NCBI GenBank assembly: GCA_028280575.1 | Contig: JANQLN010000068.1 | Coordinates: forward strand, 19,580-83,579 | Length of the DNA stretch: 64,000 nt | DNA from: Clostridia bacterium | Lineage (GTDB): Bacteria; Bacillota; Clostridia; Acetivibrionales; STF1-152 | Direction of reading: 5' to 3' | Shown: in pieces, positions 6,390 to 34,599 of the stretch | Numbering within the stretch: the stretch's first letter is position 1 | How the letters are laid out: each line of letters begins with the position of its first letter | Notes under the pieces: generated by a model | Database searches by the model: none | What the model saw: only the letters and a program-made list of their open reading frames with translations | Told to the model about the DNA's origin: nothing | Position numbers and translations under genes: made by a program

Positions 6390-6553
6390 GAAAAATACTG
6401 GTGAAAAAGCTCATGCACTAGGCTTCTTCTTATAGCAGCTTTTCAGATACAGATAGTAAGAGCAATTTGCTTAGTAAAAGTATTTGTTTACAAAATAAAT
6501 GAAATACGATATATTGGGTATGTTTAGTACCTTTCTCAATTTGAGGTGATTTA

Positions 6554-6715
6554 ATGACAAATGAAGTAAATCTTATAACAAAAGATGTAATTGTAGTCGG
6601 AGGGGGAATGGCCGGTATATCTGCTGCAATATCGGCAGCAGAGAAAGGGGCAGGGTTTAGGACCTCCTGCAATAATAGTAATAAAAAGCTTGCCTATTGT
6701 CAGCAGTCATTGTGA
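6554..6715 (+). pseudogene. N-terminal fragment of an FAD-dependent oxidoreductase
   Basis: RBS gaggtg plus MTNEVNLITKDVIVVGGGMAGISAAISAAEKGA (Rossmann GxGxxG), then unrelated sequence and a stop after 53 aa. Confidence 0.75.
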
Positions 6716-6734
6716 AATGTCAGGAGGTTTTTTA

Positions 6735-7385: not shown

Positions 7386-7647
7386 TTTCATTTATAAATA
7401 CGGCCACAAATGGGGAGTGGTTTTATGAATATAATTAAAAGTAGGAAATTTCATTTATCTGCTCTTTATACCTTTGATAGTTATTGGTCTAATAATATAT
7501 TCTTACGTCTTATATAAATAAGATGGAGACAAAACTATGAAATACTCAACTGCACTAATTGAAAAAGTCGATGTTTTCATGAAATTTGATTCCTGTGAGG
7601 AAATATAATATAATAAATTTAGATTTTAAAATTTAGATTTTAAAAAG

Positions 7648-9045: not shown

Positions 9046-9106
9046 CGGAACCAGGAATTTTACCGAAATTAAGTGTTACTCCTATAAAAGGAGGACATCT
9101 TGATGA

Positions 9107-9340
9107 AAATACTTATTGGTTTTTATGAAGGACACTTTAAGCGGATTTGCCGCATATGAGTTGGAGACAGCCCTGTAGGCCCATCTGGAGAGATTATACC
9201 TGTTTACTATACTCCTGAAAAAGATCAATCGAAAAATATTGTAACTTATAATGCAAAAGCACACCCTCATTTATCACAGGATGGGGAATTGTTAATCAGT
9301 TATAATGTCAATTCAACTGATTGGAATGCATTGGATGACG
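9107..9340 (+). pseudogene. C-terminal fragment of a DUF4185/DUF5005-like protein
   Basis: Frameshifted reading SPVGP...YNAKAHPHLSQDGELLISYNVNS, no start; family assignment from recalled motif. Confidence 0.5.
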
Positions 9341-9389
9341 TGACCCACAATTTCACAATGCTGCGTTCTGATTTCACCTTGAAACCAAA

Positions 9390-9626
9390 ATGATGAACCG
9401 GGAGATTTTTGGTCCTGCCCTGCCTGTTGTCAGTTTTGATAATCACAATGAGGCTGTAAAAATAATAAATGGCAAAGCCGCTTCCCTGGCAGTGTACCTT
9501 TTTACAAAAAACAGGACAATTGAAGAATTTTTTGTTTTAAATACTGTTTCCGGTGGAATATGTGTAAATGTAAATTATTTAAGAAGATGCTTCCTCCATA
9601 CAGGATGCAGGATTTTAATAAAATGA
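9390..9626 (+). pseudogene. Aldehyde dehydrogenase fragment
   Basis: EIFGPALPV, LAVYLFT, SGGICVN only; N- and C-terminal parts missing. Confidence 0.8.
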
Positions 9627-9752
9627 AGCTATTCATGAAAATATTTAATAAATAAATGATAGGAATTTCAACTGGTACGGCATAGTGGGTAATATGTTTA
9701 AAGATATAGAGCGAATTTGCAAAAGTGTTTTACTGACAAGGGGTGCATTATT

Positions 9753-11324: not shown

Positions 11325-11359
11325 GGTCAAGGCCATAAAAGCCCAAAAATATATTTATT

Positions 11360-11635
11360 AAAATGGTTGGAGGGGCAAAATGATTAATGGACTGACCATA
11401 ACTGTTTTGGGGATAGTAAAGGGGAGAAATACTAGTTTTTATGGATGCCGACACAGTTTTCTTACATAATGGTCTTGAAAAAATTATAAAATTATATATT
11501 GCAAATGGAATGAAGGGGCTTTTATCAATTCAACCCTATCATACGGTAAGAAAAATGTATGAAAACCTGTCTGCTATATTTAATATAATTGTTGTAGCAG
11601 GAATAAATTTTACAATTAACTGCTATATCAATTAA
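11360..11635 (+). pseudogene. GT2 glycosyltransferase fragment, CrtQ-like
   Basis: GWRGK, FMDADT and LLSIQPYH...YENLSAIFNIIVVAG segments typical of carotenoid glycosyltransferases, interrupted by stops and frameshifts. Confidence 0.7.
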
Positions 11636-11821
11636 TTAAGTTAATTGAGAGAAAAAACCAATATATTCACATTTGCATTTTACAGATTTCCCTTTAATAC
11701 AAGCATCAGAGTGAGGTTTGCAAACTTTTACTGTCAGGATGTGTGGTCATGAATTTGCTGTGGATAAATACTAAAAACTTATTGACACGGTAAGTTGAAA
11801 TGTGCTAATATTTATTTATAC

Positions 11822-11846
11822 TTGTTATAACAATATAATGTTTTGG
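11822..11846 (+). promoter_or_regulatory. Putative GntR/HutC operator (TTGTTATAACAA palindrome)
   Basis: Perfect 12-bp palindrome fitting GT-x-TA-x-AC; near-identical copy upstream of the ALDH gene at 16486-16509. Confidence 0.6.
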
Positions 11847-11966
11847 TAAAGCGAGTCAACTTAAGCGGGCTTGTCTTAAAAGTCAAATCTGAAAAGACGA
11901 TTGTACAGCAGTAATAATTGTAAAAACAGGCACAGGAGTTTAATTATTTTAAAGGAAGGTGGACAA

Positions 11967-12362
11967 ATGTCGATAAAGGTAACAAATATAAGTAATACAG
12001 GGATACAACAGAGTGAGCACTCATTTGAGAATTTGCTTCAAAAAAAGAAATCAAACGTTCTCAGGGATTCATTCATCTTGATTTCTCCTGAAAACTCAAC
12101 AACCGAAACTCTCAAGGCTGGTTATACCACAGTGTATCCTGGCTGCAGGACAAGCGGGCATACCCATCCGGAATTGGAAGAAATATATCATATAGTCAAG
12201 GGACAGGGAATAATGAAAGTTGGGGAGCAGGAGTTTAAAGTAAAGGCGGGAGATACTTTCCTTGTTCCTTTTGGAGATTTCCATACCACTGAAAACCCAT
12301 TTACCGAAACGCTGGAATATTTTTGGGTGGTATCTCCTGACCATAACAGAGTTCAAAAGTAG
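11967..12362 (+). CDS. Cupin-domain protein
   Basis: HTHPELEEIYHIVKGQG and GD...VP.G..H cupin motifs; ATG at 11967 after ggaaggtg. Confidence 0.88.
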   Translation: MSIKVTNISNTGIQQSEHSFENLLQKKKSNVLRDSFILISPENSTTETLKAGYTTVYPGCRTSGHTHPELEEIYHIVKGQGIMKVGEQEFKVKAGDTFLVPFGDFHTTENPFTETLEYFWVVSPDHNRVQK

Positions 12363-12504
12363 ATGAATGCAGACAGCATCATATGAAAGGGAGTGCAGGA
12401 GCAGGCTCCTAGGAATTCCCAAGCCTTTGGAGATGGGGGTCATGAAGCCTGAGGGACCATGAATTCCGAGGCTTCAGTGGTGTTAAGGAAGTGATGTAGC
12501 AGTT

Positions 12505-14025
12505 ATGAATGATGGTTTTTTGATGGGTATTGATATAGGGACTGAAAGTGCTCGTGCAGCGCTTTTGACACTGGATGGAGAGGTTGCTGGAAGCAGTTCG
12601 AGAGAATACCCGCTTTACTGTCCGAGAGCTGAGTGGGCTGAACAGGACCCGGAAGACTGGTGGAATGCAACAATAGAAAACATCAGAGAAATATTGTCAA
12701 AGGTGAAAAAACCCAAAATATTGGGAATAGGGATAGGCGGTCAGATGCATGCCCCAGTGCCTGTGGATAGAGAAGGGGGATTGCTGCTGAATAGGGTCCC
12801 CCTCTGGTGCGATAAAAGAAGCAGTTATCTCTGTGATGAATTCAAAAAAAGATATGAGCCCGTCCAGGGCTTGAAAATTACCGGCAATGCTGTGCTTCCG
12901 GCTTGGACGGGGTTTAAGGTCCAATGGATAAGGGAGCACTATTCTGAAATATATAATAGGACATACAAATTTTTAACCTGCAAGGATTACCTCAACTTGA
13001 AACTCACCGGCAAGATGTTTACAGATTATTCGGAAGCTTCGGCAACCTATTTATTTGATGTTGAAAGAAAAATCTGGTCCGAAGAGCTTGTAAACCTTCT
13101 TGGCCTGGATATAGACAAGCTTCCTGATATTGCAGAAGCATCTAAGCTTATAGGTACTGTAACGCCGCAAGCCGCAGTACTTACAGGATTGGAGGAGGGT
13201 ACCCCGGTGGCTGCCGGGGGCGGGGATATGATGTGTATTCTGCTGGGCGCGGGTATTTCCAAATATGGGCAGGCATGTGATATAACCGGAACGGCAGCTG
13301 ACATTTCTGTCTTTGTCGAAAAGCCTTTGTATGATCCCCGTTTAATGCATATACATCATATTGTACCGGGCGGAGGCTGGGTTTCTTTTGGAATCCTGGA
13401 CGCAGGAGGGGGAAGTTTCAAATGGTTCAAGGATACTTTCTGCCAGAAAGAATCGGAAAGGGCAAAGGATAAAGGAATTTCGGTATACCAGCTTTTGGGC
13501 GACAAAGCCGGGCAGGTTCCCGAGGGTTCGGAACAGCTGCTTTTTTTTCCATATCTGCTTGGTGAAAGGACCTTGGGGTCAAGCAACAGCAGGGGCGTTT
13601 TCTTCGGATTGACACCAAGACACACAATTGCCCATTGTGTAAGGGCTATAATGGAAGGAGTTGCCTTCGACCTCAACCAAAGCCTTGAAATTATAGAGGA
13701 TAAGAATGTAGGAATTGAAGAAATACGCGCCATTGCAGGAGGGGCAAGAAGTGATGTGTGGTGTGATATCAAAGCCAATGTATATAGAAGAGCAATTGTT
13801 ACCCTGAATAACTTTGAAGGCGGTGTGATTGGAGCTGCAATGCTTGCAGGACTTGGTGCCGGATTATACGGGGATGTAGAAGAAGCAGCGCAGAGAATTA
13901 TAAATTTTGACAAGAGGTACATACCTGAGCATGGAAAAATGGAGCTGTATGAGAAAATGTATGCCTTATATAAAGAAATGCATGATGGAATACAGGGTTA
14001 TTATCATAAACTTGCTAAACTGTAA
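12505..14025 (+). CDS. FGGY carbohydrate kinase (xylulokinase-like)
   Basis: GIDIGT, EQDP, GQMH, AGGGD, PYLLGER, GGARS motifs. Confidence 0.92.
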   Translation: MNDGFLMGIDIGTESARAALLTLDGEVAGSSSREYPLYCPRAEWAEQDPEDWWNATIENIREILSKVKKPKILGIGIGGQMHAPVPVDREGGLLLNRVPLWCDKRSSYLCDEFKKRYEPVQGLKITGNAVLPAWTGFKVQWIREHYSEIYNRTYKFLTCKDYLNLKLTGKMFTDYSEASATYLFDVERKIWSEELVNLLGLDIDKLPDIAEASKLIGTVTPQAAVLTGLEEGTPVAAGGGDMMCILLGAGISKYGQACDITGTAADISVFVEKPLYDPRLMHIHHIVPGGGWVSFGILDAGGGSFKWFKDTFCQKESERAKDKGISVYQLLGDKAGQVPEGSEQLLFFPYLLGERTLGSSNSRGVFFGLTPRHTIAHCVRAIMEGVAFDLNQSLEIIEDKNVGIEEIRAIAGGARSDVWCDIKANVYRRAIVTLNNFEGGVIGAAMLAGLGAGLYGDVEEAAQRIINFDKRYIPEHGKMELYEKMYALYKEMHDGIQGYYHKLAKL

Positions 14026-14202
14026 TGAAAAAAGCTTTTAGGAAGATTTTATTGAAACGCGTGGCCGGAAAACAATATAATAATGAAGAATTAAGCTTTG
14101 GTTATAATGAAAATGTTTTATTATAGCATAAATTAGTGTATAATTTTTGTATGAATTTTTAAAAAAAATGTATATAAAAGCTGGAAGTGGAGTGGATGGA
14201 TT

Positions 14203-14940
14203 TTGATTAACAAGTCACAGCCTTTACCGTTATATTATCAGGTAAAAGAGGATATCCTGGATAAAATCAGTCAGGAGATATTTCAGGTGGGAGACATAAT
14301 ACCTTCTGAAAATGAGCTGCAAAGCATGTATAGAGTAAGCCGCATCACTATAAGGCGCGCTATACAGGAGCTGGTTCAGGAGGGCTATCTTTCTGCCCAG
14401 CAGGGTAAGGGTACTTTTGTAAGCCAACCTAAAGCTACCCAGGAGTTAAATGTGATAACAAGCTGGGCTGAAACCATGATGAATCTTGGTATGCACCCTG
14501 AAACAAAGAACATTCAGTTCAGCGAGGAGTCTTCGTCCGTTACTGTAGCCAAAATGTTAAATGTGGACCCCGGTGAAAGAGTATATAAGATTGAGAGATT
14601 AAGATATGCCGCGGGAGAGCCTATTTGTATAATGGTTAACTACCTGATACCTGAATTGGTTCCGGGTTTGATACAAAAAGGACTTGTGGGAGAATCCCTG
14701 TATGAAACTCTGGAAAAAAGGTATAACATTGTCATGGAGAGGGCTGTTGAAACTGTAGAAGCCTGTGCGGCCAATGTACGGGAGGCAGAGCTTTTAAACA
14801 TTAAGAAGGGTTCACCACTGCTGCGGGTAAAGAGGGTGACCTACGGCAGTGATGACAGGGTTATAGAAATAGTAATAGCGGTATCGAGGGCGGACAAGTA
14901 CTCATATACAATCAACCTGCTGGGAAGACCTAAGAAGTAG
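14203..14940 (+). CDS. GntR-family (HutC/UTRA) regulator
   Basis: PLYYQ, PSENEL...VSRITIRRA...QGKGTFV; UTRA-like C-terminus. Confidence 0.93.
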   Translation: MINKSQPLPLYYQVKEDILDKISQEIFQVGDIIPSENELQSMYRVSRITIRRAIQELVQEGYLSAQQGKGTFVSQPKATQELNVITSWAETMMNLGMHPETKNIQFSEESSSVTVAKMLNVDPGERVYKIERLRYAAGEPICIMVNYLIPELVPGLIQKGLVGESLYETLEKRYNIVMERAVETVEACAANVREAELLNIKKGSPLLRVKRVTYGSDDRVIEIVIAVSRADKYSYTINLLGRPKK

Positions 14941-15013
14941 TCCATAAATCCAGGTTTTGAAAGTATCAGCCTAAAAATTTATGTTTTATCATAAAAATGA
15001 TATTTTTGGTTCT

Positions 15014-16450
15014 CTATTCAAGTTCAATCTTCACATGCTTGAACTGCAGATACTGGTCCATAGCATGTTTGGACAACTCCACCCCAAACCCGCTGTCTTT
15101 TCTTCCCCCATACGGCGCATAGATTGAATCAGGGCTAACCGTATTGACTGCTACACTTCCACAGTCTAGAGCTTCACTGGCTTTAAAGGCAGTAGCCAGA
15201 CTGCTTGTGTAAACATACGAGACCAGACCATAATCTGTATTGTTTGCCTTATCTATAGCTTCTTTGAGATTTTTAAAGGTGTCGATGGCGACAACCGGGC
15301 CAAAGGTTTCTTCTTTCATTATTTTCATATCTTCAGACACGTTTGTAAGTATGGTAGGTTCAAAGAAGTTTCCCTTGGAATACTGCGCGCCTTCCGGCTT
15401 TTTACCTCCATACTTAATAATTGCCCCTTTTGAAACGGCATCCTGGATATGTTTTTTTGCAGTATGCAGGCCGTTTTCCTCCACCATTGGACCAAGGTGT
15501 ACCTCAGGGTTTGCAAATCCATCTCCAATAGTAAGTTTGCTGGTTTCCTCGACAAATGATTCTATAAATATGTCAAATACACTTTCCTGAATATAAATTC
15601 TGTTTAAAGCATTGCAGATCTGGCCCATATTGCGAAATGAGCGTTTTACCCCATCTTTTACTGCTTTTTGCAAGTTTGCATCTTCAAATACCACTAAGGG
15701 TGAGTGCCCCCCAAGTTCCAGGTTTAATTTTTTAAGGCTTGAAGCGGATGATTGAATGATTTTTTTTCCTGTTTGGGTCGAACCGGTAAAAGCGATTTTT
15801 TTAATGAGTTTACTGCTGAATAGTTCTTCCCCCACTTCACTGTGGTTTCCATACACAACATTCAGTGCCCCATCCGGGAAACCGGCTGAGTGGCAAAGCC
15901 TCATAAATTCTGTCAACGCCATAGGAGTTGCCTTCGGCGGTTTTACAACAACCGTACACCCTGCTGCCAATGCCGGTGCGATTTTCCATGCAATCAGCGA
16001 TACGGGATAGTTCCATGCTGCGATTGCAGCAACTACACCTATCGGCTCCTTAAACACCAGGCTTTTTGAAGTTTTTGAAGCGGGGCAAGATATTTCCCCT
16101 ACCAGGTCTACACAGACCTGTGAATAGTATTCAAGTACGTCTGCAGAGCCTAGAATTTCCTTTCTCGCGTCTCCTAATGGTTTTCCGTGCTCTTTTGTAA
16201 GCAATTCAGATAGTTGCCCAGAACATTCCCTTATGACATCCGACGCCTTTCTCAAAATCCTTGAACGCTGTATAGGAGATGTCTTTGACCATATTTTAAA
16301 AGCATTATGGGCGCTGCGTATTGCCGATTTTGCTTCATCCCCTGTAAGGAAAGGTATGGTGCCCACAGTTTCACCATTTGCAGGATTTTTTACCTCCAGC
16401 CTTTTTTCGCTGTTAAACATTTTGCCGTCTATTAATACACCTAAATCCAT
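15014..16450 (-). CDS. NAD(P)-dependent aldehyde dehydrogenase (SSADH-like)
   Basis: WNYP, FTGS, LELGG, GQIC catalytic Cys, EETFGP; ATG at 16450 after gaggtg. Confidence 0.93.
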   Translation of the reverse strand: MDLGVLIDGKMFNSEKRLEVKNPANGETVGTIPFLTGDEAKSAIRSAHNAFKIWSKTSPIQRSRILRKASDVIRECSGQLSELLTKEHGKPLGDARKEILGSADVLEYYSQVCVDLVGEISCPASKTSKSLVFKEPIGVVAAIAAWNYPVSLIAWKIAPALAAGCTVVVKPPKATPMALTEFMRLCHSAGFPDGALNVVYGNHSEVGEELFSSKLIKKIAFTGSTQTGKKIIQSSASSLKKLNLELGGHSPLVVFEDANLQKAVKDGVKRSFRNMGQICNALNRIYIQESVFDIFIESFVEETSKLTIGDGFANPEVHLGPMVEENGLHTAKKHIQDAVSKGAIIKYGGKKPEGAQYSKGNFFEPTILTNVSEDMKIMKEETFGPVVAIDTFKNLKEAIDKANNTDYGLVSYVYTSSLATAFKASEALDCGSVAVNTVSPDSIYAPYGGRKDSGFGVELSKHAMDQYLQFKHVKIELE

Positions 16451-25392: not shown

Positions 25393-25803
25393 TTGATTAA
25401 TATGGAAGAATACTTTAATACAATAAAAGAATACTTAATAAAAAAACTGGATCCACACCTGATAATCATATTTGGATCTGCAATACGTGGCGAAATGAAC
25501 GATGAAAGTGATATAGATGTTGGTTTTCTCAATGAACAAAAAAATGACCCATATCGAATTTTCTTGCTGTCACAAGAACTTGCAAATATAGTTGGAAAAG
25601 ATATTGACCTTGTGGATATGTCGAAATCCTCTACAGTTATGCAGGTGCAAATAATTAGTAGTGGTAAAATAATATATAATGCCAACTACGTTAAAAGTGC
25701 GGCTTTTATGATGAAATCCTTCAAGCAGTATGCAATGCTCAATGAAGAGAGAAAATGTATTTTGGATAAAATAAATGAAAGAGGTAGTATTTATGCAAAA
25801 TGA
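25393..25803 (+). CDS. mntA: MNT antitoxin (minimal nucleotidyltransferase, MntA-type)
   Basis: FGS...G...SDID motif, DLVD; overlaps the downstream HEPN gene. Confidence 0.85.
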   Translation: MINMEEYFNTIKEYLIKKLDPHLIIIFGSAIRGEMNDESDIDVGFLNEQKNDPYRIFLLSQELANIVGKDIDLVDMSKSSTVMQVQIISSGKIIYNANYVKSAAFMMKSFKQYAMLNEERKCILDKINERGSIYAK

Positions 25804-26197
25804 CATAATAATAAATAAATGTGCTACTATAGAAAGATGTATAAAAAGAATAGAACAGGAATATGATAACAACTATGAAAATCTGAAAAACTTTACCAAA
25901 CAAGACTCCATAATTCTTAATATACAAAGGGCTTGTGAAGCCTGTATTGACCTGGCCATGCATATAGTCTCAATAAAAGGATTGGGAATCCCACAAAAAA
26001 CAAGAGATGCATTTGATATTCTCTGCAAAAACGACATTATTAGTGAATTATTAAGTAAAAAAATGAAGTCAATGGTAGGATTCAGAAATATAGCAATCCA
26101 TGATTATCAGGAATTAAGTTTATCTATTATTAATGAAATTATTAAAAAGCATCTTAATGATTTTACTGAATTTACAAGCGTAATATTATCCATATAG
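25793..26197 (+). CDS. hepT: HEPN (DUF86) RNase toxin, HepT-type
   Basis: RNIAIHDY (R-x4-H followed by Tyr); ATG at 25793 after gaggt. Confidence 0.87.
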   Translation: MQNDIIINKCATIERCIKRIEQEYDNNYENLKNFTKQDSIILNIQRACEACIDLAMHIVSIKGLGIPQKTRDAFDILCKNDIISELLSKKMKSMVGFRNIAIHDYQELSLSIINEIIKKHLNDFTEFTSVILSI

Positions 26198-26470: not shown

Positions 26471-28258
26471 CTAAACGGTATACCATTCCATTTGTGCTGT
26501 ATACATTTTATAATATATACTATCAGGGTTATTTATTAATTCTTGATGTGAGCCGTCCTCATGTATGTATCCATCATTAATTACTATAATTCGGTCTGAA
26601 TATTTGGCAAATCCAAGGCGATGGGATACAAAAAATACCAATCTGTCTTTAGCAAGTGAAAAGACTAATTTATAAATGTCAATTTCGGCTAACGGGTCAA
26701 TATAAGAGGTGGGCTCGTCTAAAATCCAAACATTTGCTTTTTCATTAGCTATCAGCCTGGCAATTGCTAAACGCTGCCACTGTCCTTTTGATAATTCTAT
26801 TCCCTCTTCAAGATTACCTAACTTAGTATAAATTCCATCAGGTTTTGTTTTTATGAATTCATACAGGCCAACCATCTTTAGTATGTTATTAATTTTATCT
26901 GGATTTAGTTCCTTTCCTCCACAACCAATTTCTATATTTTCTTTAACACTCATTTGATAGTGCTTAAAATCTTGAATAACTGCAGTAGCACATAAATCAT
27001 TACAAGAATATTTTCCTTCATAATTTTCAAGCAATGATAGAATAATGGAAACAAATGTAGTTTTTCCGCTGCCGTTATAACCAACTACTGCTATCTTTTC
27101 ACCTTTTTTAAATGATATGTTTATTCCCTTTAACACATAATTAACAGTCTGAGAATATTTATATTTTAAATTTCTGATTTCTATTAAATTAGTGCTGGCC
27201 TGACAATCTATTGTGTTGTGTTCTTTATAATCCATAACTTCATAATAAGCTTCCAAGACTCTTATATACCAATTACTATTTAGCATAAAAACTGTAAAGC
27301 TTTTTACTGTCGAAAATAGATTGGTGAGTAGGGCTACAACCATACTAAAATACCCTATATTATATTCGCCGTCTGCCACGCCTTGTCCGACAGACAATAT
27401 GGTTATGATAAATGTAGCTAGAAAAAGGGCAGAAGAAACAAGCTCTGATGAAAATGACAAAACATTTAACTTTAAATAATTTTTACGTTCGCATTTATTA
27501 TAAAATTTATATTTGCTTAAAAAAAAGGCAAAGCTTCCTTCCACCTGTATATTTTGGTGGTTTATCCTATTGCCTAGAACTCCTTTGAAGTAATTATTTC
27601 TGCGTGTCTCGGGAGAAACGTGTTTTCTCCAATAATCAAGCTGCTTGTCTGTTACAATACCTGCCAAAATTATGTTAATTATCAAAGCTATTAATATTAC
27701 GACCAGAAACATAGTATTTATTTTTGATAAAAGAACTGAATAAACTACAAACATCAATATAATTCTGGCAATTTGTGTTATACCGAATACGGCATTGCTA
27801 TATTGTCCGCTAGCTTTGCGTGCAAAATCAATTTTTTCGTGAAATTGATTGTTTTCATAGTACTCGTATGATATATTTGAAAGCTTATTAACTATGCCTT
27901 TTTCCACTTCAAAAGATACCTTATCAACGTATTTTGCTGTTATTCTATAATATAAATTACTCAATAATCTCATAATCAGTAATGCAAGAAGAAACAGTAT
28001 TATTGATGCAAATATAGTAAAAAAATTATCATCAATTCCTTGCTTTGAATAAACCGATATGCTATTTGTGGTATATTCCAAAAATTTCAAATCAATAAAG
28101 CTAACGCTCATTGTTATACAGGCAAGGACAATAATCATAATAGTATCAAATTTGAATTTTGAATATAGCTCTTTAATAATTTTCCACTGGATAATAAAGA
28201 ACTTTTTTGCAGTTATTTTTTCATTCATGTCCTTACTTTTTACTTTTTTACTCTTCAT
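26471..28258 (-). CDS. ABC exporter (TMD + ATPase), RiPP cluster
   Basis: Multiple TM helices, GYNGSGKT, LSKGQWQR, LDEPT, SHRL. Confidence 0.92.
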   Translation of the reverse strand: MKSKKVKSKDMNEKITAKKFFIIQWKIIKELYSKFKFDTIMIIVLACITMSVSFIDLKFLEYTTNSISVYSKQGIDDNFFTIFASIILFLLALLIMRLLSNLYYRITAKYVDKVSFEVEKGIVNKLSNISYEYYENNQFHEKIDFARKASGQYSNAVFGITQIARIILMFVVYSVLLSKINTMFLVVILIALIINIILAGIVTDKQLDYWRKHVSPETRRNNYFKGVLGNRINHQNIQVEGSFAFFLSKYKFYNKCERKNYLKLNVLSFSSELVSSALFLATFIITILSVGQGVADGEYNIGYFSMVVALLTNLFSTVKSFTVFMLNSNWYIRVLEAYYEVMDYKEHNTIDCQASTNLIEIRNLKYKYSQTVNYVLKGINISFKKGEKIAVVGYNGSGKTTFVSIILSLLENYEGKYSCNDLCATAVIQDFKHYQMSVKENIEIGCGGKELNPDKINNILKMVGLYEFIKTKPDGIYTKLGNLEEGIELSKGQWQRLAIARLIANEKANVWILDEPTSYIDPLAEIDIYKLVFSLAKDRLVFFVSHRLGFAKYSDRIIVINDGYIHEDGSHQELINNPDSIYYKMYTAQMEWYTV

Positions 28259-30072
28259 ACCAATTCAAGTTTCTCCTCATACACCTTTTTTTGTTCATAA
28301 AAAAGCTTTGCATAATAGCCATTTTTTAAAAGCAGCTGTTCATGGGTTCCCTCTTCTGTAATTTTACCATTTTCAATCATGATAATCCTATCAGCAAGCC
28401 TTGCAAAGCCTATTCTATGTGATATTAGAATAGCTGTTTTACCTTTGATGTTTTCTCTCAGGCCATTTATCATATCTATTTCTTTTAGCGGGTCAATAGA
28501 CGCTGTCGGCTCGTCTAATATTAATATTTCAGGGTTTCCCAAATAAGCTGAGGCGATAATCAGTTTTTGCCACTCACCCCCGGATAGTTCAACTCCGTCA
28601 TCATTGTATTCTTTTCCGACAAAAGTATTATCCGAATCCTTATATTTAGATATAAAAGACTCTATACCTGCTTTTCTATAAGCAATCGTTAATTCGGGCT
28701 TGTCATTCATATATTTAATATTCCCAAGGCCGACAATTTCTTTTATTGATAATGAAAAACGCGAAAACTCTTGCGGAGCCATACCAAAGTATTGAAATAC
28801 TCTTGATTTTTCTTGTCCAATATCAAAACCATTAATAGCAACCTTTCCTCTTTGCGGATTAAGGCTTCCGTTAAGTAATTTTGATAACGTTGTTTTTCCG
28901 CTGCCGTTATATCCCATTATACTGACAATCTCCCCTTTTTTTAAATGCATTTTTAAATCATTAACAGCCGGATTATCACTATTTGGATAACAGTATGTTA
29001 CGTTAATTGATTCTAAGGATTCAAAAGAATCAAATACCAAATTATTTGACTCTTTACACTGCTTATTTAATTTTTTCGTCTCAATGTTACCAATAGGAGT
29101 TATAAATTCTACATAATCATTTATATATTTAAGGTCTTTATAAAAGCCATTCATTACAGTACTAACGACTTTATTTATCTGTGTGTATGATGCTTCTATT
29201 AAGCCAAACAGCATAACAAATGTACCGATATCGTACTTTTTATAATAAATTCCTGTAACTAATATGAGTATCGCAGCTACTCTCAAAAAGAATTTTACTA
29301 TCAGGGATAAATTATCCAGACTAATTCTTTTAAGCGATAAAGCTAAACGTTCCTGCCGAAGATTAGAATAGATATTATCCCACTTCTTGAGGATACTACT
29401 TTTATAATCATATATGCGGAGCTCTTTTGCATACTCCTTTCCAGTTAACAATTCAACAAAATAATCCCTGAACCGTTGTTCCTTTATTTGTTTTTTATCA
29501 AGTTCATATTCCTTTTTTGAAGTGTATTTCAATGTTATAAATGATATAACGGAACATAATATCGAATATGCTATCAACATGGGTTCATATATCACAAAAA
29601 TCATGATTGTACCAAAAATGGTGCCCATATTAGAAAAAAACAACATAATAAGATTATTCAAATAAGAACTAATCTTTTGTGTATTATTACTTATAAATGA
29701 ATACCTTTCCATAAACTTCTTATCAAAAAATCTCTCTTGCGGTGTTTCTAAACTTCTCCTCATAAATATACTTTGGAAAAGGAAATCAATATTAAGTCGA
29801 AAAAAATTATTACCAAATGCTTTGAGAAAACTATTTGATATATCTATAAAATACACAATCATATATGCCATGGCAATTCCAAAAAAGGCACCGGTTGTCT
29901 GGCCCACTTTAATACTTGAAGATAGCTCATTTATGAGATTTTTATTTAATATATTCAATAAAATACTTACGGCCGTTGAAAAAGAAAGTACCAGTATATA
30001 AACGAAAATGTAAAAAAAACAATATTTAAATGATTTTTTAATTATCCAAAGGATATTATTTATTTGCTTCAT
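28255..30072 (-). CDS. ABC exporter (TMD + ATPase), RiPP cluster
   Basis: GYNGSGKT, LSGGEWQK, LDEPT; 4-bp overlap with the next ABC gene; no C39 peptidase domain. Confidence 0.92.
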   Translation of the reverse strand: MKQINNILWIIKKSFKYCFFYIFVYILVLSFSTAVSILLNILNKNLINELSSSIKVGQTTGAFFGIAMAYMIVYFIDISNSFLKAFGNNFFRLNIDFLFQSIFMRRSLETPQERFFDKKFMERYSFISNNTQKISSYLNNLIMLFFSNMGTIFGTIMIFVIYEPMLIAYSILCSVISFITLKYTSKKEYELDKKQIKEQRFRDYFVELLTGKEYAKELRIYDYKSSILKKWDNIYSNLRQERLALSLKRISLDNLSLIVKFFLRVAAILILVTGIYYKKYDIGTFVMLFGLIEASYTQINKVVSTVMNGFYKDLKYINDYVEFITPIGNIETKKLNKQCKESNNLVFDSFESLESINVTYCYPNSDNPAVNDLKMHLKKGEIVSIMGYNGSGKTTLSKLLNGSLNPQRGKVAINGFDIGQEKSRVFQYFGMAPQEFSRFSLSIKEIVGLGNIKYMNDKPELTIAYRKAGIESFISKYKDSDNTFVGKEYNDDGVELSGGEWQKLIIASAYLGNPEILILDEPTASIDPLKEIDMINGLRENIKGKTAILISHRIGFARLADRIIMIENGKITEEGTHEQLLLKNGYYAKLFYEQKKVYEEKLELV

Positions 30073-30114: not shown

Positions 30115-31164
30115 TTAGCTTACAATACTCTTTTTATTTGTTGCATAACGATACAAAAGATGATTAGTTTGCTTTTTCCTGAATAAACATCCTCCATCAG
30201 TTCCATAGAAATTGCCTAAATGAAAAGCTTTACCTCTGCACCCACCTCTGCAAATACTCTTACAAATACATTGATTGCAATTTGCCAGCTTTTCTTTACT
30301 GGCACTTTTTATGTTATTCAGAATGGTTTTATATTTTTCATTTTTAAAAATGTGTAGTAAATCATGGTCATTGATATTACCTAATATATATTCGTCACTA
30401 TATAATAATTGACACGGCAATACACAACCTTTGTAATTGATACATAAATTAATTTCACTTTTATCATCTGTTAACGGACAAATATAACCATATTGAATAG
30501 GATTTACATCTTCACGGTTATTCTTCATCATTAATTCACCAATTAGCAAATGTATTTTATATAAATCATCTACATTTTGAATAAACATGTCTTGTTTGCC
30601 TGACGCATTTCCTTGTCTTTCTAGGAGCCCAAAAATGGGAAGATAATCATAATATGAAATTAAATTATAAAACGCTTTTATGTCTTCTTTATTATAAGCT
30701 GAGACTACCATTTTCACAAATATTTTTTTAATACCACTCTTTTTTAACTGATCAATATTATGAATTGTTTTATTGAAGCTTCCATGTCCTCTAACTATAT
30801 CATTAGTTTCTGCTGTAGCACCATCTAAACTTATTTGCAAAGTTAAAAGTGAATATTTTTTGATATATTCTATGAACTTGGTATTAATAAGCGTACCATT
30901 AGTAACAATAGTAGCATTTAAACCTCTCTTAGTAATATAATCTAGTATTTTCAAAAAATTTTTATGTAATAGTGGTTCGCCACCTGACAGTGTTATGGAT
31001 TTAGCATTACTGATAAACAAATTGTCAACCAATGAACAAATTGCTTTATAAGATATTTCTTCATTGGGATTTTTTGGCGACTGGTTATAGCAATGCTTAC
31101 AACTTAAATTACATTTTGATGTTATTTCAATATAACAATTTCCAATTTTTCTCATAATAGCCAC
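30115..31164 (-). CDS. Radical SAM/SPASM peptide maturase
   Basis: CNLSCKHC (CxxxCxxC), SGGEPL, SLDG; SPASM region C...GCVLPC...CxxCx5CxxxCx16C; no N-terminal RRE. Confidence 0.92.
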   Translation of the reverse strand: MAIMRKIGNCYIEITSKCNLSCKHCYNQSPKNPNEEISYKAICSLVDNLFISNAKSITLSGGEPLLHKNFLKILDYITKRGLNATIVTNGTLINTKFIEYIKKYSLLTLQISLDGATAETNDIVRGHGSFNKTIHNIDQLKKSGIKKIFVKMVVSAYNKEDIKAFYNLISYYDYLPIFGLLERQGNASGKQDMFIQNVDDLYKIHLLIGELMMKNNREDVNPIQYGYICPLTDDKSEINLCINYKGCVLPCQLLYSDEYILGNINDHDLLHIFKNEKYKTILNNIKSASKEKLANCNQCICKSICRGGCRGKAFHLGNFYGTDGGCLFRKKQTNHLLYRYATNKKSIVS

Positions 31165-31172
31165 CCGTTAAC

Positions 31173-31733
31173 CTATATTATTTTTTGTATTAGTATACTA
31201 GCGTTTAACAATTGATATAAAAAATGATATGTTTCATCTAGCAATTCCTGTTTATCAACCTGAAACTCGTTTTGTAATGAAAGAATAATTTCAATTAAAG
31301 TTGTTTTACCATCAAACTTTTCTAATATATGTTTTTCCAAATCTTCAAGGACATAAACTATATTTTCTTGTGAATTAAAAATAACATATCCATCATCAAT
31401 ATTCTCTAAATGCAAAGATTTATTTGTAATATAGATTTTGTGCTTGTCATCTTTCATTTGTTCATTCTTATCCATCATTTGTTCAATAGTTTCTATTGCT
31501 ATATCCGTTTCATTTTCTTCATTGCCAAAATCATACTTAGTGCAATACCCTCCTGAAAAACTGAAACAAGTATCAGAATTGATATTCTTGTAGATACCTT
31601 TTTCATCCAGATTATTACTATTAGACCTTTTGCTCATACCCAAACCACATCCTTTATTCATACCCCCTCCAACTCCTTTGCTCATGCCCACTCCACTTTC
31701 TTTTATCAGGCTCCGTTCAGATATTTTTTTCAT
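31173..31733 (-). CDS. PqqD-family RiPP recognition element with an N-terminal precursor-like extension
   Basis: C-terminal ~88 aa fits PqqD (DDGYVIFN...VYVL......ILEKFDGKTTL.EI...L...F.V......D...FL.QL....IL); ATG at 31733 after gaaggtg. Confidence 0.8.
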   Translation of the reverse strand: MKKISERSLIKESGVGMSKGVGGGMNKGCGLGMSKRSNSNNLDEKGIYKNINSDTCFSFSGGYCTKYDFGNEENETDIAIETIEQMMDKNEQMKDDKHKIYITNKSLHLENIDDGYVIFNSQENIVYVLEDLEKHILEKFDGKTTLIEIILSLQNEFQVDKQELLDETYHFLYQLLNASILIQKII

Positions 31734-31801: not shown

Positions 31802-32100
31802 TTTATTGAATAATGAAAGAAAATAAACGATTATAGAACAATATCTTATTAAATCAATTTTCTGTATTCAAATAAATTATTTCGGACTACAATGGTCATC
31901 ACACCACCCACCGGAATAATTTGAACAAGCTCCAGCTACAATTTGATTATTGATTGATTCCTGATCCAGCTTTATGAGTTTAAGTGCTCTCCATTTCATG
32001 CATACCACCTCCTTTACATTCTCTTATAGTATGCTATATAAAATACGTAAATAGTTAATGATAAGTCTAGTTTTCGCTTTTCCCTTCATTATTCAATAAA
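31802..32100. repeat. Perfect 16-bp inverted repeat enclosing the precursor gene
   Basis: tttattgaataatgaa (31802-31817) and ttcattattcaataaa (32085-32100). Confidence 0.85.
31877..31999 (-). CDS. Putative RiPP precursor peptide, 40 aa: MKWRALKLIKLDQESINNQIVAGACSNYSGGWCDDHCSPK
   Basis: Hand-translated; strong RBS aaaggaggtgg upstream of the ATG at 31999; co-oriented in the cluster; Cys/Ser/aromatic C-terminal core. Confidence 0.88.
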   Translation of the reverse strand: MKWRALKLIKLDQESINNQIVAGACSNYSGGWCDDHCSPK

Positions 32101-32240: not shown

Positions 32241-33791
32241 TCAACCTTTACAGATTACACCTTCCCCTTGCAAATATTTCCTGTTGTATTCTATATTTTT
32301 TATATTGTCTTGTGACAATAACGGCTTTATTACGCTGAAGCGGTCTTCACAGAAAAGTCTATCAAGGAAAGGGATCGGCCAAGTATTATATTCAGATTCT
32401 GCTAATCCAAACCGATCTAAAAAACCCGGTTCGCCTATTTCTAATTCCTGATAGGGTTCCAATATTGACTTATCGTCGAAAACCAAAGCTGTATAATACA
32501 AGGTGTAATATATGTATTTTTCAATATCATATAGTTTTGCTATCTTAATTACTAGGTCAGTATTTATATTCTCTTTCTTTACTAAACTATATACATCACA
32601 AAATCTACGTAAGCTTATACTTTTATTTCCGGATAATAAGTACAAAGAGCTATGTTCCTTATAATTGTGCAGACAATATTGTATAAAAGCCTTTTCAATG
32701 GAAAGTGTATAGAAATCAACCGAACCATATGTAGTCTTTACGGTATCTGATAAAAAATCTTTTATTTCTATAGATTGGCTTTCATGTTTCCCCCATAAGA
32801 TAGCAAAGTTAATGTTTATGCATATAAAGGGTATTCGTTCATCTGTATTAGGTTTTATATAAGGTAAAACTTGATTAGTAGAGTTTAAATAAAATAACAT
32901 CTGCTTTCGTGTAAATTTAGAAATGGTCATATTCTTATTCAGATATCCCTGTACGAAACCCTGTCTTTCTAATATAGATATAATATCTTGGAGATTTTGC
33001 TTGTCAATCAATATATTTATTTCTGATGAACCACTATAAGATTCGTCTTTATATACAGCTTTAGCTAAAGGTAGCCCTTTTATAATTGCATAGGGAAAAT
33101 CTATAGCAGAAATTATTGGGGGTAGCATATTATATAGTACCTGATAAGCTGATTTATTCAATACTCTCTTTACTCTTGATACAGCATCTAAGTTAAATTC
33201 TTTAAAACCATTCACTTTTGATAATAATTCTGTAATATTGTGACGTCGAAATATTCTCAAAGTATCTGCCAATATGTTTTTTGATAAGTGAGCAGTGTCA
33301 ATTAACCCCTTCTTAAATATTGAGCGTAATATGTGTAAAACAATATGGTAAAAGTTAGTTTCAACATTTAAGAATAAATTTTTGTACTTTTGATATTCAA
33401 CGTCCTTTATAATTTTTTCAATATTATAATTATAAATCTCTGCTACTTTGTGTACCTTAAAGGCCAAATCGATAAATATATTAATATTATTTATATCTAT
33501 ATATCCTTTTGTTAAATCGATTCCTCCCCTTTTTACAGATATAACTTTGCCTATGACGTTGTTTCTACTAACAAATTCCAAACGAAATGAATTATCACCT
33601 TTGCATAATAAACGGTTTTTTTGAACAGAGATAACTCTATGAACAAGATAACCTTCATCCTTATAAGAAAATACGACGATGTCTCCCGGATGATAATCAC
33701 AAAGTGGCCTTAAGCGAACTAAATCTCCATCTTTCAGGCGTGGATTCATACTAGCCCCTTTTACAATTATTGTAGTACCTTCAATTGTCAA
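32241..33791 (-). CDS. S24/S26 peptidase fused to an NTP_transf_5-type nucleotidyltransferase domain
   Basis: N-terminal GASMNPRLKDGD, LVHRV, KGDN; C-terminal YAIIKG..LA...Y, EINILI, later RRFCD. Confidence 0.8.
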   Translation of the reverse strand: MTIEGTTIIVKGASMNPRLKDGDLVRLRPLCDYHPGDIVVFSYKDEGYLVHRVISVQKNRLLCKGDNSFRLEFVSRNNVIGKVISVKRGGIDLTKGYIDINNINIFIDLAFKVHKVAEIYNYNIEKIIKDVEYQKYKNLFLNVETNFYHIVLHILRSIFKKGLIDTAHLSKNILADTLRIFRRHNITELLSKVNGFKEFNLDAVSRVKRVLNKSAYQVLYNMLPPIISAIDFPYAIIKGLPLAKAVYKDESYSGSSEINILIDKQNLQDIISILERQGFVQGYLNKNMTISKFTRKQMLFYLNSTNQVLPYIKPNTDERIPFICININFAILWGKHESQSIEIKDFLSDTVKTTYGSVDFYTLSIEKAFIQYCLHNYKEHSSLYLLSGNKSISLRRFCDVYSLVKKENINTDLVIKIAKLYDIEKYIYYTLYYTALVFDDKSILEPYQELEIGEPGFLDRFGLAESEYNTWPIPFLDRLFCEDRFSVIKPLLSQDNIKNIEYNRKYLQGEGVICKG

Positions 33792-34599
33792 AGTCCATCC
33801 TCCTTATCACTTGATTTACAAACTTCATTTCAGTGTAACTTATTTTCTTACAGAAGTATTGAGATAGTTGAGTCAGGAATTTTAGATAATTTTCAGATAT
33901 CTTTACTCTTTGAATAGAGTTTTCAAGCAATAGTTTTATTTTTTCTCCACAGTTCAATTTTTCAACTGCATTAGTATTTTCTGTTCTTTCAATTAGAAAT
34001 ATTTTTCCAAGCGGTACATTGCAATTTACTACATTTCCAGGTTTATATATATACCGCTCTGCAATGATATGGTTAAAAAAATGGGTATTAATGTTAATAT
34101 TATTATTATATAATGCTGTTATTCCACCACTCCTCAGATGGATATTACATGGAAAGGGAATTACTTCCTTTGTTTCTCTATCAATTATAGAACAATCATC
34201 TGTAATATAACCAAAATCTTGCTGTATTAAATAAGTAGTCAGTGTTGTCTTTCCACTGCTTGTAGGTCCCACTAGCAAAAAAGCCTCGCCGTTATATTCA
34301 ACTGCTGCTGCATGAATAGCAAAAAAACTTCGATTTATTTCAGTATTTTCATAAATAAAGTTTATTATTGTCTGTAAAGGATTTCTAACTTGTGTTCTTT
34401 TGTTATTCATATCAATCCATATACCGCTATCATTTTTTATTACCTTAATAATAGCGGACTTATTTGTCTGTGCTTTAGCAATAAAAGGCTCGTAATACAT
34501 TTCTATTTGTTTGATTAATTCCTTCATATTGGTATGAATCTCAATATCCGTATCATGGCAGGGTCTATTAATATATAATACATTTGTCATGCAGTCCAA
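33781..34599 (-). CDS. HPr kinase-related (RiPP-type) Ser/Thr kinase
   Basis: IHAAAV...GPTSSGKTTL P-loop and ITDD motif; 11-bp overlap with the peptidase gene. Confidence 0.8.
   Translation of the reverse strand: MDCMTNVLYINRPCHDTDIEIHTNMKELIKQIEMYYEPFIAKAQTNKSAIIKVIKNDSGIWIDMNNKRTQVRNPLQTIINFIYENTEINRSFFAIHAAAVEYNGEAFLLVGPTSSGKTTLTTYLIQQDFGYITDDCSIIDRETKEVIPFPCNIHLRSGGITALYNNNININTHFFNHIIAERYIYKPGNVVNCNVPLGKIFLIERTENTNAVEKLNCGEKIKLLLENSIQRVKISENYLKFLTQLSQYFCKKISYTEMKFVNQVIRRMDFDN

Follow-up and report, generated by a model that had tools for sequence, protein, structure and literature searches.

A conserved 40-codon precursor gene beside a radical SAM/SPASM enzyme, an HprK-like protein and a signal-peptidase-like fusion in a Clostridia genome

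The locus lies on the minus strand of the window, by which we mean the whole stretch of 64,000 nt that was analysed. On this strand the genes follow each other in the order HprK-like protein, S24/S26::NTP_transf_5 fusion, precursor, PqqD-family protein, radical SAM (rSAM)/SPASM enzyme and two ABC exporters (Table 1). A spacing of 143 nt separates the precursor gene from the PqqD frame downstream of it, which the rSAM gene follows directly. All seven ORFs of the cluster are intact and have kept their catalytic motifs. The first-pass annotation had proposed an ORF at 31877-31999 without stating its strand; the frame is present as claimed and runs on the minus strand. The ribosome-binding site proposed with it, AAAGGAGGTGG, was found at 32015..32005 of this strand and is a consensus Shine-Dalgarno (SD) sequence at ideal spacing, with 8 nt between the end of GGAGG and the ATG at 31999. 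Likewise, the residues counted in the core (three Cys, three Ser, Tyr, Trp and His) are correct and correspond to Cys25/33/37, Ser26/29/38, Tyr28, Trp32 and His36. In the mechanical ORF list the same frame is entered as a 43-aa ORF with a GTG start (31877..32008). An identical 40-aa protein already has an entry in the protein collection, and hence the precursor has been called by at least one gene caller. The local DNA is AT-rich (GC 0.36); the promoter scan gave 12 promoter-like sites, which is not above the 9.4 +/- 2.6 of the shuffles, and no terminator was found in the terminator scan.

Table 1. Positions of the genes, domains and signals of the cluster within the window.
Feature	Position	Strand	Basis
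HprK-like P-loop protein, 272 aa, putative peptide kinase	33781..34599	minus	weak family matches
S24/S26::NTP_transf_5 fusion, 516 aa	32241..33791	minus	Pfam domains
S24/S26 signal-peptidase-like domain, N-terminal in fusion	about 33543-33770	minus	Pfam Peptidase_S24
NTP_transf_5 nucleotidyltransferase domain of fusion	about 32478-33101	minus	Pfam, 82.1 bits
Shine-Dalgarno AAAGGAGGTGG of precursor gene	32005..32015	minus	direct reading
Precursor gene, 40 codons	31999..31877	minus	reverse-complement translation, MKWRALKLIKLDQESINNQIVAGACSNYSGGWCDDHCSPK plus stop
Leader, codons 1-24 (MKWRALKLIKLDQESINNQIVAGA)	31928..31999	minus	gap-free alignment to family leaders
Predicted core, codons 25-40 (CSNYSGGWCDDHCSPK)	31880..31927	minus	match to C-[ST]-x-aromatic motif
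Stop codon TAA of precursor gene	31877..31879	minus	direct reading
PqqD-family RRE frame, 186 aa, ATG after GAAGGTG	31173..31733	minus	Pfam PqqD
24-nt tandem repeat, 3.1 copies, in frame, G-x-G-x-G-M-[SN]-K units	31629..31703	minus	TRF
Precursor-like paralogous segment in PqqD extension (LDEKGIYKNINSDTCFSFSGGYC)	31542..31610	minus	BLASTP, DNA alignment
Radical SAM/SPASM maturase, 349 aa as listed (346 in collection)	30115..31164	minus	Pfam
ABC exporter, fused permease-ATPase, 605 aa	28255..30072	minus	ABC_tran, 92.9 bits
Second ABC exporter, fused permease-ATPase, 595 aa	26471..28258	minus	ABC_tran, 70 bits

Judged by sequence comparison, the 40-codon ORF is a real precursor gene and belongs to a widespread family of peptides that has no name. 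A profile built from 23 other members, without the window's own sequence, was run against the six-frame translation of the window (1,725 segments of at least 20 aa). The precursor ranked 1/1,725 (E 2.6e-5, 20.4 bits) and the runner-up reached E 0.053; the match adjoins the orthologous enzyme genes. Purifying selection is evident in seven family pairs, where pN is 0.21-0.29 and pS 0.63-0.93. At E<=0.01 the family takes in 42 proteins of the collection; a full-library HMMER search at E<=0.001 found 117 cluster representatives (50% identity). Nearly all of the 60 representatives inspected read W-x-K-P...[SAG]-A-C-S-x-[YF]. None of the 42 collection proteins bears a family name in its source annotation, and no description of the peptides was found in the full-text literature, subscription papers and supplements lying outside this search. 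In the ESM Atlas the clusters nearest to the precursor are unnamed small proteins (0.90, 0.88 and 0.88). Among clusters that bear a name, clostridial CLI_3235-type bacteriocins and lanthipeptide leaders come closest, at 0.75-0.77, and serve as a lead only.

The 25 precursors that we aligned combine a conserved leader with a variable core and show no gaps from Trp -22 to Cys +1. W-R-A-L-K-L near the start of the window peptide had been likened to the [YW]xxPxL motif of lasso leaders, Leu replacing Pro. The alignment bears this out, since Trp -22 is found in all 25 and Pro -19 in 24, the window peptide with its Leu being the sole exception; the +5 position of this W-x-x-P-x-[ML] motif is hydrophobic throughout. 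Glu -10 is likewise present in 24 of the 25 and is replaced by Ser in the window peptide, which is the most divergent member. The cleavage site predicted earlier, after A-G-A, agrees with the family: position -1 is always Ala or Gly and position -3 always Ala, Ser, Leu or Ile, and the motifs of the putative peptidase are kept. Position -2 is Gly in the window peptide and G, A, N, S or R across the family, never Thr. At this predicted junction of leader and core the pattern of conservation shifts in character.

In the core, Cys +1, Ser or Thr at +2 (the only hydroxyl conserved throughout), an aromatic residue at +4 and a second Cys are present in 25/25. The spacing between the leader end and the aromatic residue is constant; the position of the second Cys varies from +6 to +10. 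The candidate acceptors proposed earlier for the rSAM and the kinase can thus be narrowed to these four positions, which in the window are Cys +1, Ser +2, Tyr +4 and Cys +9. The third Cys of the window core (+13) is unique among the aligned precursors. Core lengths range from 12 to 25 residues, some cores are devoid of Asp and Glu, and no precursor ends in Ser.

The association of peptide and enzymes was followed through 14 loci that carry this rSAM family, namely the window, L024 and L204-L215. Nine of these loci have a canonical precursor, and the combination of gene set and peptide is found again in distant Clostridia genomes. Both the synteny and the peptide family are conserved, which supports the assignment of the ORF to the neighbouring rSAM cluster. 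PqqD is present at all 14 loci, an HprK-like match at all 14 (short and partial in L204, L208 and L215) and the S24 domain at 12; a similar ABC pair occurs also in L206 and L106. No canonical precursor was seen in L208, L209, L212, L214 and L215. The sequence of L209 is cut off where the precursor would be expected, L214 and L215 offer distant candidates only, and even with relaxed motifs no precursor came to light in L208, L209 or L212. Our first leader regular expression had matched L024 only, among 13 loci.

In the scans of the collection, the family loci among the matches listed were L024, L105 and L106, and most of the 160 were unrelated rSAMs. No precursor was seen within 1.2 kb upstream in L105, whose contig ends just past the rSAM, and the metagenome contig L104 apparently carries the same cluster as L024. 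The rSAM family was reached at class level only, by profile. No close orthologue of the rSAM was found in 41 relatives or in 149 genomes of the order, and therefore the window copy stands without confirmation by close comparison.

The rSAM itself matches Pfam Radical_SAM (94.5 bits) and SPASM (36.6 bits) above the cut-offs, and its CxxxCxxC motif (C15, C19, C22) and seven C-terminal SPASM cysteines are invariant in 33 sequences. Its best NCBIfam match is StsB, where it scores 139.1 bits and the cut-off is 625, and PapB gives 85.9 bits (cut-off 340); no curated sacti- or ranthipeptide synthase family matched at its NCBIfam cut-off. Since the protein falls far below every curated cut-off, its chemistry is unreadable from homology. 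The AF2 model (pLDDT 90.9) resembles CteB (5.5e-17) and SkfB (8.8e-17) most closely among PDB folds, with anSME and SuiB nearly as good, and SkfB is also the nearest solved relative by sequence (2.4e-15). The crosslinks of the core, with its invariant Cys +1 and its second Cys, would probably be thioethers.

Alternatively, precursor and cluster could be the same and the rSAM could link the conserved +4 aromatic residue through a C-C or C-O bond, giving a cyclophane or ether of the triceptide, streptide or darobactin kind, with the two cysteines forming a disulfide or serving another role. The fixed distance of the aromatic residue in 25/25 peptides, next to a second Cys that floats, would suit such a reaction. 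Moreover, SuiB, which forms a Lys-Trp C-C bond, matches the fold almost as well as CteB does, and the WgkB, DynA and MftC-type models score in the range of the sactisynthase models. Against this reading, Cys +1 is invariant and the second Cys is never missing, the best matches in both sequence and fold are thioether-forming enzymes, and no curated cyclophane family reaches its cut-off. We therefore consider a C-C or C-O crosslink unlikely.

The PqqD frame matches Pfam PqqD with 28.7 bits (cut-off 23.4) over residues 124-188 of the 194-aa listing. Only its last ~100 aa (31176-31478) match the stand-alone homologues of 84-94 aa (12 aligned), and it begins with an 85-aa extension that carries a degenerate copy of the precursor. 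This paralogous segment aligns with the precursor without gaps (9/23 identical, 15/23 positive), at a pairwise BLASTP E of 1e-5 and an E of 0.478 in a genome-wide tblastn search, and is devoid of the Trp/Pro leader motif. The tandem repeat in the same frame (TRF score 80, 72% matches) consists of units that each resemble the SD-plus-ATG region of the precursor in the DNA alignment. No SD is visible before the Met residues of the frame where the homologues begin.

Such an extension could be a sign of a decaying locus. The peptide family would then be real, and the window would hold a copy without a mature product, in which the leader has lost its Pro and Glu and a second copy has become fused into the PqqD frame. 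In favour of decay, only the window peptide, of 25, has both Leu -19 and Ser -10, and the degenerate paralogue, the repeat and the lack of an internal SD point in the same direction. On the other hand, none of the seven ORFs is broken, the catalytic motifs are kept, the SD of the precursor is strong, and the C-S-x-Y core motif and second Cys are intact. Decay of the locus thus appears quite improbable to us.

When the RRE and the precursor were co-folded with alignments of our own, the score was 0.57 against 0.01 for the best control, a result that the tool marks as 'weak support'. Of 80 solved complexes, 58 earned this mark, as did 2 of 110 mismatched pairs; among those that passed, however, scores of 0.60 or below belonged to only 7 of the 80 solved complexes and to both mismatches. 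The partner pLDDT was at least 52 and the runs agreed in at least 89% of contacts. As solved RRE-leader complexes exist, the pass may reflect likeness to, or memory of, these structures.

The HprK-like protein has a Walker-A-like GPTSSGKTT sequence and matches Pfam Hpr_kinase_C with 20.2 bits, below the cut-off of 33.3. The NCBIfam models HprK_rel_A (40.7 bits), HprK_rel_B (40.5) and ScmC (30) all remain far below their cut-offs as well; orthologues in the syntenic loci are 30-34% identical. In the fusion protein, the peptidase domain reaches 30.6 bits with Peptidase_S24 (cut-off 23.3) and 16.7 bits with Peptidase_S26, below the cut-off of 22.9, and the best NCBIfam match is TIGR02228, archaeal-type signal peptidase I, at 49.3 bits, just under 51.85. 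The motifs GxSMxP, VHR and KGDN, which we take to be the boxes of the Ser nucleophile, the general base and the GDN signature, are conserved in the window (GASMNP, VHRV, KGDN) and in 14 related loci. No membrane anchor was found in the 516-aa sequence. Among the exporters, the 605-aa protein resembles NHLM_micro_ABC1 (199 bits, below cut-off), and no peptidase domain was detected in it with Pfam or NCBIfam.

Two further readings were considered and rejected. That the ORF arose by chance and is untranslated might be argued from its mere 40 codons in AT-rich DNA; it is highly improbable given the consensus SD at ideal spacing, the first rank in the leave-one-out profile search, the same peptide family beside the same enzymes in distant genomes, and pN << pS. 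A lasso peptide precursor, as hinted by the likeness of the leader to YxxPxL, by weak matches of 4/25 family members to the paeninodin precursor model (best E 0.0015; the window peptide itself has no match to NF033524, paeninodin family lasso peptide, at E<=1) and by a kinase, a nucleotidyltransferase and a PqqD protein such as Firmicutes lasso clusters also encode, is contradicted by the gene content and has next to no probability: the seven genes include neither an Asn-synthetase-like cyclase nor a B2 peptidase, the only Transglut_core3 match of the genome belongs to another rSAM cluster, located on a different contig, position -2 is Gly and not Thr, and the first acidic residues of the core stand at +10 and +11, with some family cores having none.

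In the reading that we favour and hold to be very likely, the surrounding minus-strand operon makes a radical-SAM-modified RiPP, and the ORF supplies its precursor (A) peptide. The leader (residues 1-24) would probably be bound by the PqqD-type RRE via W3-x-x-L6-x-L8, equivalent to W-x-x-P-x-[ML] of the family. The rSAM/SPASM enzyme may then crosslink the core via Cys25 and the second Cys, and sacti- or ranthipeptide-type thioethers, the likeliest outcome of this step, are an evenly balanced prospect. The HprK-like protein might phosphorylate Ser26 (+2) and the fused nucleotidyltransferase might decorate the phosphate, as in phospho-glycosylated lasso peptides; for this step we remain somewhat doubtful. 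With a little more confidence than not, we expect the cytoplasmic Ser/His signal-peptidase-like domain to cut off the leader after Ala24, and the two ABC half-transporters would export the 16-residue product. Both the cleavage at Ala24|Cys25 and the phosphorylation of Ser26 are what we infer from the family pattern and the domain content.

Several parts of this scheme have counterparts in lasso peptide biosynthesis. According to two papers (PMC8498205, PMC10368454), K kinases of lasso clusters phosphorylate Ser residues of the precursor, including a core Ser3, with the RRE accelerating phosphorylation, and the phosphate is glycosylated by the nucleotidyltransferase N, which in some clusters forms one protein with the leader peptidase. 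Phosphorylated and glycosylated lasso clusters (paeninodin, pseudomycoidin, Bradymonas Bsf) have several features in common with ours: an aromatic-x-x-Pro-x-Leu/Met leader motif, a discrete PqqD-type RRE (B1), an HPr-kinase-like K, an NTP_transf_5-type N and ABC export (PMC8498205, PMC10368454). However, our cluster has neither a lasso cyclase nor a B2 cysteine peptidase; their roles fall to the rSAM/SPASM enzyme and to the S24/S26 peptidase of the Ser/His kind. Moreover, the leader motif is found at -22..-17 in the family and at -17..-12 in lasso precursors, and the family has neither Thr -2 nor a conserved C-terminal Ser; its cores contain Cys and start with C-[ST]-x-aromatic.

With sacti- and ranthipeptide systems (CteB/thermocellin, SkfB/sporulation killing factor, StsB/streptosactin) the cluster shares a full-SPASM rSAM and a small Cys-containing precursor. 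The window rSAM is only 19-24% identical to their maturases in structural alignments, and its RRE is a separate protein, whereas theirs is an N-terminal domain of the rSAM. To our knowledge, these systems do not include kinase, nucleotidyltransferase or signal-peptidase-like genes. The SynChlorMet (SCM) cassette is a bioinformatic definition of NCBIfam/TIGRFAMs, and our full-text literature search for 'SynChlorMet' returned no paper. It combines HprK-like (ScmC), PqqD-like (ScmD) and rSAM/SPASM (ScmE/F) proteins as our cluster does, but the window's proteins match weakly and stay far below all equivalog cut-offs (ScmC 30/125, ScmD 23.7/100, ScmE 109.9/400 and ScmF 93/400 bits). Finally, the peptidase domain shares the S-M-x-P, H-R and GDN boxes with Ser/His type I signal peptidases (archaeal, ER, SipW), and the small residue at -1 and the small or aliphatic residue at -3 before the predicted cut in the family recall their substrates. 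Unlike these enzymes, it shows no membrane anchor and has a nucleotidyltransferase as its fusion partner, a place taken by PqqD in other loci.

The same genome holds two further hybrid clusters, one of them still with a lasso B2 peptidase; no precursors of these two were found in the intergenic stretches examined. Their presence could point to a swapping of modules between the lasso and rSAM pathways.

We found no description of a cluster combining rSAM, HprK-like, S24/S26 and NTP_transf_5 proteins in the freely searchable full-text literature, including PMC4289311, PMC9389541, PMC13289728 and PMC7470986. As a tentative proposal, in which we place less than even trust, the cluster may represent an undescribed RiPP class, where the leader recognition and the phospho/glyco tailoring of lasso pathways (RRE, HprK-like kinase, NTP_transf_5) have come together with an rSAM/SPASM crosslinker that replaces the lasso cyclase. 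The soluble Ser/His signal-peptidase-like domain would then be a new RiPP leader protease, and C-[ST]-x-aromatic would mark a new modification. If so, one may expect a new crosslink beyond those of sacti- and ranthipeptides, or a step beside the N-terminal Cys that depends on phospho-Ser.

Overall, the 40-codon ORF provides an entry point to a family of 117 representatives, whose leader, junction and core motif can now be precisely defined. The clusters join lasso-type recognition and tailoring with radical SAM crosslinking, two RiPP worlds that are normally kept apart, and hint that the leader protease may be a soluble enzyme akin to signal peptidases. Should a crosslink of a new kind, or a step that depends on phosphate, take place at the C-[ST]-x-aromatic motif, the family would offer a new enzyme reaction and a new class of products from gut and anaerobe Clostridia.

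Direct translation of the minus strand shows an ORF of 40 codons, MKWRALKLIKLDQESINNQIVAGACSNYSGGWCDDHCSPK, followed by TAA, and the Shine-Dalgarno sequence AAAGGAGGTGG has its GGAGG core 8 nt before the ATG. These readings confirm the 40-aa precursor ORF and ribosome-binding site proposed in the first-pass annotation. Its remark that the ORF track had missed the gene does not generalise: a mechanical ORF list gives the frame as a 43-aa GTG ORF, and a large protein collection already contains the identical 40-aa sequence. Because the GTG of the 43-aa version overlaps the Shine-Dalgarno sequence, the ATG is the likely start. A promoter and terminator scan at the locus was uninformative, and the nearest look-alikes in the atlas are unnamed.

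Judged by its sequence, the window peptide, though divergent, genuinely belongs to a broad family of RiPP precursors that has no name. A profile of 23 other members, with the window sequence left out, ranked the window ORF first among 1,725 six-frame segments of at least 20 aa (E 2.6e-5, 20.4 bits; runner-up 0.053). The alignment of 25 family sequences has no gaps from the Trp through the aromatic residue after Cys-Ser. With Cys25 counted as +1 and Ala24 as -1, Trp-22 and Cys+1 are found in all 25 sequences, and position -17 is always Met, Leu, Ile or Val. Glu-10 is present in 24 of the 25, the window peptide having Ser there and its Glu one position earlier. Position -3 is occupied by Ala (15), Ser (5), Leu (4) or Ile (1), position -1 by Ala (13) or Gly (12), position +2 by Ser (23) or Thr (2) and position +4 by Tyr (19), Phe (4), His (1) or Trp (1). 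A second Cys lies between +6 and +10 in every member, while a third, at +13, occurs only in the window peptide. Family pairs gave a pN of 0.21-0.29 against a pS of 0.63-0.93 (synonymous sites saturated), a pattern expected of a peptide that is translated and constrained; the window precursor is the most divergent member, with a pN of 0.46-0.48 to three others. A word-indexed search with nine members returned 42 proteins at E<=0.01, none named beyond 'hypothetical protein', and HMMER, run in full on 1.84 billion representatives, gave 117 matches at E<=0.001. Nearly all of the 60 inspected show W-x-K-P-x-[ILVM]...E-L...[SAG]-A-C-S-x-[YF], then a second Cys.

The assignment of this peptide to the adjacent radical SAM (rSAM) cluster is supported by synteny as well as by the conserved peptide family. 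No orthologue of the window rSAM was found in 41 relatives (best matches 28-31% identity) or in 149 genomes of the same order. In the protein collection there is a family of rSAMs of ~340 aa that share 33-38% identity with it; the members with a source name come from Clostridia metagenome-assembled genomes. A profile of 33 of these sequences, run on the 399 genomes of the class that were scored, gave 11 matches of at least 272 bits in nine other genomes and one of 200 bits. All 12 loci were taken with wide flanks (L204-L215), and L024 is one named locus from the genome collection, among the matches listed. Across related loci, HprK-like gene, S24 peptidase, PqqD and rSAM are found together, the peptidase standing alone or fused to NTP_transf_5 or PqqD, and small ORFs of one family adjoin these sets. 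The canonical precursor is present in 9 of 14 loci, the window counted: directly upstream of PqqD-rSAM in L204, L205, L207 and the window, and at other cluster positions in L206, L210, L211 and L213 (two copies each in the last two) and L024. The short-ORF scan beside homologous rSAMs bears out conservation in syntenic clusters. The sequence of L209 ends at the expected precursor position, motif scans found no precursor in L208 and L212, and the only candidates in L214 and L215 are distant ones of the MKYSKP type.

Features of the window cluster and of related loci
Feature	Location	Strand	Basis or remark
HprK-like P-loop protein	window 34599..33781	minus	domain search
516-aa fusion, S24/S26 signal-peptidase-like domain + NTP_transf_5 nucleotidyltransferase	window 33791..32241	minus	domain search
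Shine-Dalgarno sequence	window 32015..32005	minus	read directly
Precursor ORF	window 31999..31877	minus	between fusion and PqqD frame
PqqD-family frame	window 31733..31173	minus	domain search
N-terminal extension of PqqD frame	window 31479-31733	minus	absent from 12 homologues
24-nt tandem repeat	window 31629-31703		3.1 copies, in frame
Precursor-like segment	window 31542-31610		within extension
rSAM/SPASM enzyme	window 31164..30115	minus	domain search
Two fused ABC exporters	window 30072..26471	minus	domain search
Overlapping small genes, 136 + 140 aa	window 25393-26197	plus	downstream of exporters
S24-PqqD fusion	L105 1981-2721; L206 9055-9861		one protein
Acyl-carrier-protein-like ORF, 82-85 aa; in L024 also a 549-aa ORF	L024 9011-10901; L206 6841-7098		some family clusters
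Cys-rich small ORFs	L106 7102-7260, 7273-7428; L215 7386-7598; L214 7228-7437; L109 8881-9105		beside more distant rSAM relatives
Second hybrid cluster (L220)	C103:72000-88000, 6077-11423	plus	source genome
Third hybrid cluster (L221)	C30:78000-97000, 4102-15457	minus	source genome

The Cys-rich ORFs start MKY[ST]KP or MKKYNKP and keep a K-P-x-[ILV] leader piece; Trp and the A-C-S junction are absent, and they may be sister precursor families. The acyl-carrier-protein-like ORFs, together with a 549-aa ORF between rSAM and nucleotidyltransferase in L024, hint at acyl modification in those family members; the window cluster has neither. The 136/140-aa gene pair looks, by its sequence, like a nucleotidyltransferase/HEPN-type pair and is probably outside the RiPP cluster.

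None of the window cluster's enzymes reached a curated NCBIfam cut-off. The top match of the rSAM was the sactisynthase family StsB (139 bits, cut-off 625), and the HprK-like and PqqD proteins weakly matched HprK-related A/B, SynChlorMet ScmC/ScmD and lasso-PqqD models. The rSAM keeps CxxxCxxC and seven SPASM cysteines and has no N-terminal RRE, which is consistent with a separate PqqD. Its closest solved relative by sequence is SkfB (2.4e-15), and its model (pLDDT 90.9) is closest in fold to CteB (5.5e-17) and SkfB (8.8e-17), with anSME and SuiB close behind. Given these nearest relatives, the balance leans towards thioether chemistry for the enzyme.

When the PqqD region (13-row alignment) was co-folded with the precursor (25 rows), the score was 0.57 and that of the best control 0.01. 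The co-folding tool grades this as weak support, to be read with the possibility that the model remembers solved RRE-leader complexes. Solved complexes attained this grade in 58 of 80 cases and mismatches in 2 of 110; values no higher than 0.60 were seen for only 7 of the 80, and for both passing mismatches. Partner pLDDT was at least 52 and contact agreement between runs at least 89%. Homologous PqqD proteins have 84-94 aa; the window frame is longer by ~85 codons at its start, where an ATG is preceded by a GAAGGTG. The repeat units in this extension resemble the Shine-Dalgarno-plus-ATG region of the precursor, and the segment LDEKGIYKNINSDTCFSFSGGYC aligns gap-free to LDQESINNQIVAGACSNYSGGWC of the precursor, at its leader end and core start (9/23 identical; pairwise E 1e-5, genome-wide E 0.478). 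The segment lacks the Trp/Pro motif, and no stop separates it from PqqD. We read the extension as a putative degenerate duplicate of the precursor gene with its initiation region, now continuous in frame with the RRE gene.

The peptidase keeps the motifs GxSMxP, [LV]VHR and KGDN both in the window and at 14 related loci. We take these motifs to be the Ser box, general-base box and box E of type I signal peptidases, with His presumably the general base as in the archaeal/ER/SipW type. The 516-aa fusion, as read, has no apparent membrane anchor. Type I signal peptidases follow a -1/-3 rule at the cleavage site, and the residues before the invariant Cys of the family, small at -1 and small or aliphatic at -3, fit it. 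The leader is conserved and constant in length and the core varies in length, and the change between them at this point supports Ala24/Cys25 as the junction, where the signal-peptidase-like domain would remove the leader. Cleavage after A-G-A, as first suggested, fits these residues and this change; the cut itself is a prediction, as are crosslink type and phosphorylation site. No aligned member ends in Ser, which rules out a C-terminal kinase site of the paeninodin type. A hydroxyl is kept in 25/25 at one position alone, as Ser/Thr at +2, and Ser26 is therefore proposed as the kinase target, by analogy with Bsf Ser3.

Could the peptide be a lasso precursor? The leader has the spacing of lasso YxxPxL, with an aromatic residue, Pro at +3 and Leu/Met at +5 of the motif; the earlier view of W-R-A-L-K-L as such a motif with Leu for Pro agrees with Pro-19 in 24/25 and Leu in the window. 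The NCBIfam paeninodin-family model weakly matched 4 of the 25 members, the window's excluded (best E 0.0015). The accessory genes of the window cluster are those of phosphorylated and glycosylated lasso clusters. In such clusters, lasso K kinases phosphorylate a Ser of the linear precursor (PMC8498205, PMC10368454), the N nucleotidyltransferase adds a hexose to the Ser phosphate of pseudomycoidin and in several instances forms a fusion with the B2 leader peptidase (PMC8498205), and the Bradymonas kinase targets core Ser3, the RRE speeding up the reaction (PMC10368454). Lasso membership was rejected, as the window cluster has no cyclase and no B2, Thr at -2 is absent and core positions 7-9 of the window peptide carry no acidic residue. 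Unlike in lasso clusters, the cyclase and B2 roles are here held by rSAM/SPASM and a Ser/His signal-peptidase-like domain.

Two other contigs of the source genome bear clusters of the same hybrid kind. L220 encodes rSAM/SPASM, PqqD, Transglut_core3 (a lasso B2-like peptidase), HprK-like, NTP_transf_5 and ABC transporter proteins, with no lasso cyclase among eight ORFs scanned. L221 has PqqD, three rSAM/SPASM enzymes, a B12-binding rSAM, HprK-like, ABC transporter and NTP_transf_5 genes. Precursors were not found in the intergenic stretches examined at either locus.

Searches of openly available full texts turned up no account of clusters of this type or of the peptide family. Overall, gene content and motifs point to the clusters being a variant of rSAM-RiPP pathways made from lasso-type recognition and tailoring parts. 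The S24 partner is PqqD in L105 and L206 as against NTP_transf_5 in the window, and the PqqD fusion ties the peptidase directly to leader recognition.
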